Shown here: positions 18,890-50,233 of the stretch, piece after piece
Layout of the letters: each line of letters opens with the position of its first letter
Numbering within the stretch: the stretch's first letter is position 1
Assembly (NCBI GenBank): GCA_964016885.1
Contig: OZ024745.1
Span: forward strand, 53,196,001-53,260,000
Direction of reading: 5' to 3'
Origin: Eledone cirrhosa
Taxonomy: Eukaryota
Length of the DNA stretch: 64,000 nt
Notes under the pieces: model-generated
What the model saw: the letters and a program-made list of their open reading frames with translations, nothing else
Database searches by the model: none
What the model was told of the DNA's origin: nothing
Position numbers and translations under genes: made by a program

Positions 18890-18972
18890 TCAGTCAATGG
18901 CAACATTGAGGACCGAATAAATTAGATTACCGATATAGAAGCGAAAAGCGAAAACCAACCAAACAGTGAGTG

Positions 18973-19012
<40 letters not shown>

Positions 19013-19129
19013 CAGCGATGAATTAGTTTTGCGAGGTTTTTTATATGAAATCGTGTGTCGAAACAAATATTGTTATACTTGGGGAGGGTCATATTTGTGT
19101 AATATTGCCAGAATTAATAACAGAACACA

Positions 19130-19133
<4 letters not shown>
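18888..19133. mobile_element. Split, inverted pieces of a pLTR-like repeat (family also at 49990-50130 and 61240-61399)
   Basis: 18888-18973 is the reverse complement of the distal part of 61300-61399. 19066-19133 matches 61240-61309. A (TA)n tract separates the two. Confidence 0.75.
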
Positions 19134-19396: not shown

Positions 19397-19464
<68 letters not shown>

Positions 19465-19465
<1 letters not shown>

Positions 19466-20346
19466 TAGCAGTGGTAACCCGCGTTGCACGGGATAAGGTA
19501 TTTTGGAACGCGGGCCGCCAATAGACCTAAAAACTGCATGCCTTGACAATATGTAAAGAAAATAAACCGAATACTCTGATGGCTGGATAATCTTTAAGAT
19601 TTTCCTCGATGAAGTAGGAAAAATGCAGGTTTTCACCTAATGCGGGCCCTAGGACATCAAGAAGATGAATTTTTTTTATGTGCATAATATGCCTTGACAT
19701 TTCGGGAAAATCGGCTAGACGTAACGCCTCCAAAAAGCCCTAAGAAGCTGAAAAAATGAAGTTTTTCACCGAATGCGGTCCCTAGGCCATAAGAAAGTTG
19801 GATTTTCTTTGCTTACGGTATGAAGAAGAGACTGACTAATACATAGTTACAATTTCAAGGAAATCGGTCTGACGTAACGCCTCAAAAAAAACCCTGAAAA
19901 TGTTAAATAACGCAGTTATTCACCTAATGCGGGCCCTAGGCGACACAAACAGTTGAATTTGTGCATAAGACTCCCTGAAACATAAGTAATACACATGTAA
20001 ATTTTGAAAAAAATTGGTTGGGTACTTCTCGAGTTTTAGGGATTCGAACTCACACACACACTCAAACAGACATCCTCAAGGAAGTGACGTAATGCAGACA
20101 GACAGATATTATAAGGGCGCGACGTTATAAATATGTATCTATCTAAAAAGAGAAAGACTAAGAATTATAGAGCGAGATCACTAAATCCCCTAATGTGGTC
20201 CCTGGGGCTTAGAGTGTTTGAAATTTGTTTTGCTCAGAACACTCCGTGAAACATAAGTATTACATGTGTAAAGTTTGAAAGCAGTCGGTTGGGTGGTTCT
20301 CGAGTTTTAGGGATTCGAACTCACACACACACACACAGAAATCCTC

Positions 20347-20355
<9 letters not shown>
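19465..20355 (-). mobile_element. Non-autonomous Helitron-like element
   Basis: The minus-strand 3' end is the hairpin CCCGTGCAACGCGGG followed by CTAG (19465-19468). Internal subrepeats of about 130-150 bp (TTCACCTAATGCGGGCCCTAGG near 19632, 19765, 19919, 20188). The 5' end is blurred in (TA)n. Confidence 0.75.
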
Positions 20356-20394
<39 letters not shown>

Positions 20395-20749
20395 TTTTAA
20401 TACATAAACAAAGAAAGCTTTAAGCAATACTCCGACCGGCTTCCGTCTCACTCAACAAACATTAGGATATACCTTAGTATAATCCCAATTATACGTTTGG
20501 GGTGCTAACTATACGTATTTTGCGGATAGCCAGTTGTATTATTTTATATGAGACATAATTAAAATACATCTCTCTTTCCAAACGATCGTTTCATTATAAG
20601 TTTTCTACAAATTGGGAAAATAATGTCCAGGTTATGTAGAAGCCTGTAGGAATATATGTAGGTGGTCACTTATAAATCATCAGTGGATGCCCGACAAATA
20701 TCGATAAAAAAAAAACAACCTTACCGATATTAATATTCAGCGATGGTAC

Positions 20750-21081
20750 GAATTAGTATATCTACTAACATATATATACAGATGCATACTTATGCCAGCA
20801 AATACATAGGTTTTGTCTTAGTAACTTTGTGGTTCAATGCATGGGGATGCAGAACAATAATATGAAAGACGTAAAATAAGAAAGTTATAAAAATTAACTT
20901 ACTTACTAAAATTTCACTCCTTGGTTGTTTACTTCTCGAGTTTTAGGGATTCAAACTCACACACACACACACACGCACTCAAACAGACATCCTCAAGGAA
21001 GTGACGTAATGCAGACAGACAGATATTATAAGGGAGTGAAATTTTAGTAAGTTAATTTTTATAATTTTCTTATTTTACGGC

Positions 21082-21090
<9 letters not shown>
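20750..21090. mobile_element. Fold-back insertion, family F2 (same family as 49368-49961), with a captured loop
   Basis: Arms at about 20860-20920 and 21033-21090 are inverted. The tail 20750-20860 matches 49368-49480. The loop 20921-21032 matches 20014-20117. Confidence 0.85.
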
Positions 21091-21180
<90 letters not shown>

Positions 21181-49367: not shown

Positions 49368-49957
49368 AATTAGTATATCTACCAACATATATATACAGAT
49401 GTATACCTATGCAAGTAAATATATAGTTTTGTCTTAGTAACTTTGTGGTTCAATGCAAGGGGATGCAGAACAATTATATGAAAAACGTAAAATAAGAAAA
49501 TTATAGTAATTAGCTTACTTACTTGCATTTCACTCCAACTAATTAGTTTCTGAAAGGGAATATACATAGTCTCCAAATGGAGATCATGGAGAAACCTTTT
49601 CTTCATCAGGGAGTCATTCTCAGCTAAGATACCTGGCGATGCGCGGACACAGGGAACTTATACAAAAATAATTCAGTGATTGATTCTTTTGAATTTGCCA
49701 CCGACCAAGAAGGCGGTGATTTTTTCAGTGTCTTGGAATTTAGTCCCCGCTTGCTCTTTTCCATCCACTGAATTATTTTTTGTATAAGTTCCTTGTGTCC
49801 GCGCATCGCCAGGTATCTTAGCGAGAATGACTCCCTGATGAAGAACAGGTTTCTCCATTATCTCCATTTGGAGACTATGTATATTCCCTTTCAAAAACTA
49901 ATTAGTTGGAGTGAAATTTAAGTAAGTAAGCTAATTACTATAATTTTCTTATTTTAC

Positions 49958-49961
<4 letters not shown>
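49368..49961. mobile_element. Fold-back PLE pLTR, family F2, hammerhead in each arm
   Basis: Arms at about 49482-49678 and 49766-49961, spacer of about 87 nt, tail 49368-49481, (TA)n flanks. Confidence 0.9.
49532..49614 (-). ncRNA. Type-I hammerhead motif with a long stem-II insert (mirror 49830-49912 has GAAA changed to AAAA)
   Basis: Minus strand: actcc-CTGATGA-agaa...ttca-GAAA-ctaattag-TT-ggagt. Confidence 0.75.

Positions 49962-50233
<272 letters not shown>

Follow-up and report, generated by a model that had tools for sequence, protein, structure and literature searches.

In a window of 64,000 nucleotides of Eledone cirrhosa DNA (contig OZ024745.1, positions 53,196,001 to 53,260,000; coordinates below are those of the window), two inverted arms of one repeat face each other across a spacer at 20750-21090, and both inner ends fall at the cleavage site predicted for the hammerhead of that repeat. 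Does such a fold-back record the copying of an RNA that had been cut by its own ribozyme? The initial annotation had proposed so, with RT running off the 5' end of the ribozyme-released RNA twice. In what follows, +1 of the repeat unit is the first G after the predicted hammerhead cut.

The left arm ends at 20920 and the right arm starts at 21033, as annotated, both at the predicted cut (Table 1). The base after 20920 matches neither the element nor any microhomology, so the left inner end is blunt. The GG microhomology noticed at the right junction was also found: the first two G of the right arm fit the spacer donor too, and the true start of this arm may therefore be +1, +2 or +3. The left arm differs from a genomic unit (L086) by 3 mismatches, and the copy matches the one at 49368, which is of a different subfamily, at 90% and other copies at 98-99%. 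The outer end of the long arm lies outside (TA)n, 6 nt short of the usual +177 end; the last 6 nt and the (TA)n were possibly lost at 20749/20750 through a later insertion or deletion. Contigs from three DNA runs neither bridged nor contradicted the junction at 20750-21090.

Table 1. Features of the two copies in the window, and loci of the other hammerhead families
Feature	Position or locus	Strand	Remarks
Long arm	20750..20920	-	unit +1..+171, numbered from predicted cut; blunt inner end (+1)
Spacer	20921..21032	+	112 nt copied from another repeat family; match extends to 21034
Short arm	21033..21089	+	+1 to about +60; one 4-nt repeat missing; last bases blend into TA run
Target tract	21086..21177	.	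(TA)n then (GA)n, usual target of family
Likely spacer donor	20014..20117	+	907 bp upstream, same strand as spacer
Second copy, long arm (subfamily A)	49368..49678	-	runs through cut to about -140
Second copy, short-ended arm	49676..49961	+	begins near -230; cut position 49907/49908
Type I hammerhead (predicted)	49532..49614	-	predicted cut between 49537 and 49536; GUU triplet
Family F2	L063, L132, L152, L183		
Family F3	L213, L042, L080		
Family F4	L132, L075		
Further hammerhead-bearing locus, no family letter	L204		

The spacer is part of another repeat of about 1 kb, for which a first look gave 460 candidates genome-wide. Compared with 20014-20117 of the window, 20921-21034 shows 3 substitutions and a CA run 10 nt longer. 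Two variants are common to the 20014-20117 copy and the spacer and were seen in none of the 10 other best copies of that family, whereas one substitution of the spacer matches the other best copies and not the 20014-20117 copy. Judged from these variants, the local copy 0.9 kb upstream is the likely source. When spacers of 90-120 nt were searched genome-wide, only the 20750 copy among 7 matches had the +1/+1 form; a composite 'arm-loop-arm' family was rejected, the combination being found at 20750-21090 only.

Other repeats lie nearby. The spacer donor is contained in a dispersed repeat of about 1 kb with internal duplications, which follows (TA)n at 19455-20350 and has a 5' end of Helitron-like appearance. 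Another dispersed repeat, 20392-20749, adjoins the long arm and has 77-92% matches in several fetched loci. Further short repeats flanked by (TA)n are found at 49993-50138 and 18890-19130; one is apparently inverted, with an end resembling the short end of family F3 (see below).

The 530-nt family and its predicted hammerhead

The arms belong to a family with a 530-nt tandem unit that bears the hammerhead and occurs as monomers to multimers in a 3.0-Gb genome. The unit is AT-rich and non-coding, without LTR, and the longest stop-free frame in the doubled unit is 64 aa. At least five subfamilies differ in helix I; the 20750 copy belongs to subfamily B, for which 1,269 exact 28-nt anchors were counted genome-wide.

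In the second copy, the hammerhead on the minus strand (49614-49532) has a 5-bp helix I, an intact core, a palindromic helix III and a long helix II whose base carries a 1x1 mismatch, a single base being unpaired on either side of the first G-C pair. The plus-strand arm (49676-49961) has the core GAAA changed to AAAA, the intact GAAA being on the minus-strand arm; the hammerhead quoted in the initial annotation proved to be a composite that merges both arms. The CUGANGA, GAAA and UH core, helices I-III and a helix I variation compatible with pairing, all expected of a type I hammerhead, are present. Among 134 hammerhead motifs, the CTGATGA core is intact in 123 and helix III is unchanged in 122, and the helix I variants among subfamilies are 5-bp, bulged 5-bp and two 6-bp types. 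An Rfam scan of the window returned no match at the gathering score, the hammerhead scoring below it. The GUU triplet and the mismatched base of helix II are features associated with lower activity and speak against efficient cleavage. The helix III palindrome forms 3-4 bp, or 12 bp as a dimer. Since it is kept, the ribozyme does not belong to the minimal type, which lacks helix III and loop 3, and this designation had to be dropped.

Inside the hammerhead, a pyrimidine tract that ends in CAG occupies unit -28..-14 (49550-49564, minus strand), directly before the core AAA, and donor-like GTAAGT repeats lie 3' of the cut at +15..+24 (20897-20906, minus strand). Penelope-like elements (PLEs) carry introns near the ribozyme.

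We mapped 351 arms in the fetched loci: 151 end at +60-64 and 141 at +175-179, and arm ends of the family are usually in (TA)n. An inverted or other unit piece precedes 294 of the 351, in loci partly selected for that. The two 3' ends correspond to start sites (+60 and +177) inside the tandem unit of 530 nt, and some arms extend over 591-714 nt before stopping at a cut. With +177 as a start site inside a longer RNA, the template of about 170 nt assumed initially is not supported. A hairpin is predicted next to each RT start site (unit +4..+58 and about +94..+180), with the start site at its 3' base.

Two 3' ends with a one-sided tail, an inverted 5'-truncated arm, partial tandems and microsatellite targets, as in Penelope-type elements, were all found in the family. 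By its testable features, the element is to be classed as an animal non-LTR retrozyme that would be inserted Penelope-style. No ORF with RT and GIY-YIG domains was continuous with the repeat, 57 arms having no common non-unit upstream sequence, and no autonomous partner was found around family copies in the fetched loci. Broken RT and GIY-YIG fragments of Penelope type adjoin family copies at L014, L017, L025, L040 and L053. They are separate insertions, not continuous with the unit, and some family copies sit in TA tracts within them. The GIY-YIG fragment matched Pfam GIY-YIG with E 0.001, below the cut-off; from a linker motif, we take the fragments to be Neptune-like. At least four more hammerhead-bearing repeat families targeted to (TA)n were found in flanks, with GUA or CUA triplets and differing helix III loops (Table 1).

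Arm ends at the predicted cut

The filters used for listing one-sided ends lose some symmetric fold-backs in a fixed way; we therefore listed tight fold-backs separately, as all loci in the genome with inverted anchors no more than 30 nt apart. After removal of one tandem duplicate (from 38 to 37), both arms lay within -2..+3 of the cut, a range chosen after the data had been seen, in 18 of the 37 fold-backs. By anchor listing these were 13/27, 4/9 (one tandem duplicate of 10 dropped) and 1/1. The two arms stop together at the predicted cut at 20750-21090 and at about twenty other genomic places. Mostly 0-3 nt separate the two arms, with no palindromic microhomology. The flanks differ between loci and the arms are mostly 61+182 nt; at three loci one arm of about 590-714 nt had passed one junction before stopping at the cut. 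The stop tracks the cut in subfamilies with a 5-bp and with a 6-bp helix I.

In the 27-locus listing, 14 centres were 9-13 nt long and none was 0-8 or 14-19 nt, a blunt join at the cut giving a centre of 10 or 12 nt; the scan-corrected p for this clustering was 5e-4. Of the 14 loci of this listing without both arms at the cut, 5 fold at the palindrome of helix III, 5 have a single arm at the site, 3 are asymmetric joints made by microhomology and 1 is at +5/+5. Centres of 31-60 nt were found at 14 loci, mostly asymmetric, with one more exact +1/+1 joint that has a 35-nt templated spacer. At L002:1138-1283, another junction has been filled by copying DNA from the nearby flank, which indicates that templated spacers recur in the 530-nt family.

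Two upstream fold-back controls gave 5 loci, with short palindromes or templated spacers, and 0 loci, from smaller denominators. The downstream control gave 65 loci (50 listed), many with A/T-run centres not fitting the 530-nt unit; noisy as it is, it shows that short palindromes attract fold-backs. Symmetric joints without microhomology were found almost only at the cut, and joints elsewhere were mostly asymmetric.

That two cDNAs stop at one place suggests a feature of the molecule from which they were copied. We give a probability of roughly 65% to the explanation that both reverse transcripts ran to the end of the same cleaved RNA and were then joined head to head, for which R2 junctions are a precedent. 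As the main alternative, RT may have stalled on uncut RNA at the edge of helix III, and the stalled cDNA may have snapped back or met a second stalled cDNA. The 12-nt palindrome at -12..-1 may form an inter-unit duplex starting exactly at the cut (dimer duplex -10.8 kcal/mol, edge at -1), many arms end at -1/-2, and stalling would make catalysis by a mismatched GUU ribozyme unnecessary. We consider stalling unlikely, because independent stalls are too rare for the double stops observed: in subfamily B there are at least 5, compared with less than 1 expected at an estimated rate of about 3% per arm. Moreover, the stronger hairpins (helix II and the +94..+180 stem) showed no symmetric peak in the windows tested, and the mostly asymmetric junctions elsewhere argue that snap-back is not a general rule.

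A common 5' end made otherwise, for instance where transcription starts or a host nuclease cuts at the very position of the hammerhead site, would account equally well for the correlated arm ends. It is improbable, however, since the coincidence with the UH bond would have to hold across subfamilies and some arms run past a first junction to end at the following one. Copying of a capped RNA tends to add a G at the cDNA end, whereas the base before +1 in subfamily-B arms is mostly A or T and no added G is left unexplained.

For one-sided ends, truncated copies were listed by patterns with non-consensus letters upstream, several counts being read by hand. With all subfamilies together, 11 ends fell at -2..+2, 16 at -13..-3, 14 at +3..+6 and many at +7..+11 among the matches listed (100 of 611), about 20 indel false positives having been set aside by hand; there was no clear peak at the cut in this sample. 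A narrower pattern (hand-read; 100 of 148 among the matches listed) gave 42 ends at -2..+2 against 10 at +3..+5 in GG-type copies and 24 at -2..+2 against 14 at +3..+6 in types with a 6-bp helix I.

Subfamily B was counted separately (100 of 129 among the matches listed), with 11 false positives set aside by hand: 15 ends fell at -13..-3, 19 at -2..+2, 3 at +3..+5 and 52 at +6..+9, the last a larger peak than that at the cut. By hand, 19 ends at -2..+2 thus compare with 18 in 14 flanking positions; by script, on 98 of the listed rows, with 18 against 16, p was about 1e-4 and remained so in a microhomology-aware simulation. Without symmetric pairs, the numbers were 15 and 18 (p 0.003). The enrichment of one-sided ends at the cut is about 3.5-fold. 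Further upstream, the 15 positions -28..-14 held 19 true breaks among all 31 rows listed for that stretch in subfamily B, which puts the cut site at 4-5 times the upstream baseline. The peak at the cut spans 4-5 nt rather than a single base, and an extra A or AA at a cDNA end may be untemplated or reflect read-through of -1/-2. About 3% of the 1,269 subfamily-B units stop at the cut, an estimate that takes the filter capture to be about 0.7. Of the first 30 units of this subfamily taken without selection, 26 continue through the cut, 3 stop there and 1 stops at +8. Indels that end-to-end template jumping might leave at the cut were not enriched: there were 8 deletions genome-wide, with 1 single-base loss at the cut and 2 longer ones ending there.

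These ends also bear on a later revision of the insertions, in which fold-back palindromes at helix III would have broken at their AT-rich centre and been trimmed to the GC clamp, with templated repair in the 20750 copy. Helix III palindromes do make up 5 of the 27 fold-backs, and the spacer 20921-21032 resembles templated break repair. This account is nevertheless quite improbable. Of the 19 subfamily-B rows at the site (100 of 129 among the matches listed), 15 are something other than symmetric fold-backs, and at L057 and L067 a lone arm beginning at +1 directly adjoins (TA)n or unrelated DNA, the arm of L067 being 712 nt long; no intermediates with centres of 14-19 nt were found, and one product is again a perfect palindrome. 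Trimming to the GC clamp was rejected, ends at -13..-3 not being depleted relative to -28..-14.

Three of the other hammerhead families were counted too. In F2, 1-2 of 15 fold-backs were at the cut, and one-sided ends numbered 18 against 48 (p 0.28; 100 of 604 among the matches listed, with 29 false positives). In F3, both arms were at or near +1 in 3 of 40 fold-backs, 27 folding in the TA tract, and one-sided ends were 31 against 41 (1.3-fold, p 0.15; 100 of 149 among the matches listed). In F4, both arms lay within -2..+3 in 8 of 38 fold-backs, with AT microhomology at the site; centre lengths showed no excess, 10 of 38 falling within 3 nt of the blunt join compared with 8.6 expected. With no clear peak in F2, F3 and F4, the effect is either family-specific or weak elsewhere. 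In 9 of the 100 F3 rows listed, one extra A stands exactly at the predicted cut (for example, G000:C1:88727001), as a subfamily variant or a ligation or template-jump scar.

Ordinary random 5' truncation with correlated arms would be in keeping with these flat families and with the all-subfamily sample, and breakpoint rates differ tenfold between positions. We regard chance as very improbable: two tests that are partly independent gave p values of 5e-4 (scan-corrected) and about 1e-4, and the microhomology-aware simulation agreed. The truncation peak foreseen by the initial annotation is therefore present in part: it is strong in symmetric fold-backs and appears in the one-sided ends of subfamily B, whereas it is several nucleotides wide, concerns a small share of units, is not evident across all subfamilies and was not clearly replicated in three families.

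Proposed course of insertion

The family anatomy comprises the two fixed 3' ends, (TA)n targets, inverted arms and tandem units. By analogy with the biochemistry of Poseidon, a Penelope-type RT/GIY-YIG protein acting in trans would nick both strands and start one cDNA at each internal site. In a minority of insertions, both arms end at the cut, mostly with 0-3 nt between them; here the template would have had a physical 5' end made by the hammerhead, which, in tandem transcripts, probably folds as a dimer by way of its palindromic helix III. Head-to-head joining of both cDNA 3' ends would follow. At 20750-21090, one cDNA end may first have copied 112 nt of the neighbouring repeat and then annealed by GG/CC. 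Most insertions would derive from uncut or re-ligated RNA by read-through.

Likely, then, the self-cut RNA sometimes serves as the template copied into DNA, and most copies read straight through the cut. Of the original proposal, a common 5' end at the cut remains the best explanation of the double stop, as a minor route taken by about 3% of units. The more specific claim that the joints record Penelope-type machinery copying ribozyme-cleaved RNA in the germ line, with both cDNAs on one RNA molecule, is in our judgement evenly balanced. If it is true, arms that run past a first junction to end at the following one would record multimers or circles cut during copying, and the frequency of joints would measure in vivo cleavage for each family from assemblies alone. 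Countable insertions ending at the cut would provide in vivo-derived evidence that cleaved RNA enters the integration complex by a minor route, and the joints at the cut support a two-cDNA origin of the inverted arms. The junction test is applicable to any assembly.

Comparison with known systems

The comparisons here refer mainly to the open-access main texts of the cited reports. Within that literature, we found no report of PLE or retrozyme copies whose genomic ends lie at the hammerhead cut, and a paper on fungal PLEs likewise contained nothing about ends; Fig. S2 of PMC11167929, which maps genomic ends, may bear on such endings. Like the present family, animal non-LTR retrozymes are described as non-coding tandem units of low GC, each bearing one type I hammerhead; they are dispersed as monomers to multimers and have been proposed to be non-autonomous Penelope derivatives (PMC7229834; 10.64898/2026.07.22.740005). 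The 530-nt unit exceeds the 150-450 nt given by Cervera and de la Pena (2020, PMC7229834) and falls within the 51-972 nt of the preprint of Li et al. (2026, 10.64898/2026.07.22.740005). Both reports favour circular templates, and their main texts, as far as covered, contain no analysis of insertion ends.

EN+ PLEs share with the 530-nt element two internal RT start sites, a one-sided tail, inverted arms, partial tandems, AT-rich or (TA)n targets and a hammerhead upstream of the start sites (PMC8557442; Poseidon PAc, PMC11167929); the inverted 5'-truncated copy with a one-sided tail was described by Craig et al. (2021, PMC8557442). The 530-nt element differs from them in having no ORF and a tail of about 117 nt rather than 30-40 (PMC8557442; PMC11167929). 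According to the main text of Frangieh et al. (2024, PMC11167929), the RNA used by Poseidon PAc in vitro was uncut, and none of the RNA-seq reads ended at the PAc cut, whereas a minority of the 530-nt copies end at theirs.

As in the minimal hammerheads of PLEs, as set out by Cervera and de la Pena (2014, PMC4209133), the predicted ribozyme is of type I, with a short helix I, a long helix II, an extra base after A9 and a dimer-type design. It departs from them in keeping a palindromic helix III, like the Drosophila and shrimp variants of the same report, and in having an extra base also before G12 and a GUU triplet (PMC4209133).

The closest precedent for genomic ends set by a ribozyme is R2 with its 5' HDV-like ribozyme, whose genomic 5' junctions track the cleavage site in the account of Eickbush et al. 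(2013, PMC3774820). Cleavage sets the normal full-length 5' end of R2, whereas in the 530-nt family it would be a predicted side route of about 3%, set by a hammerhead and recorded in head-to-head joints.
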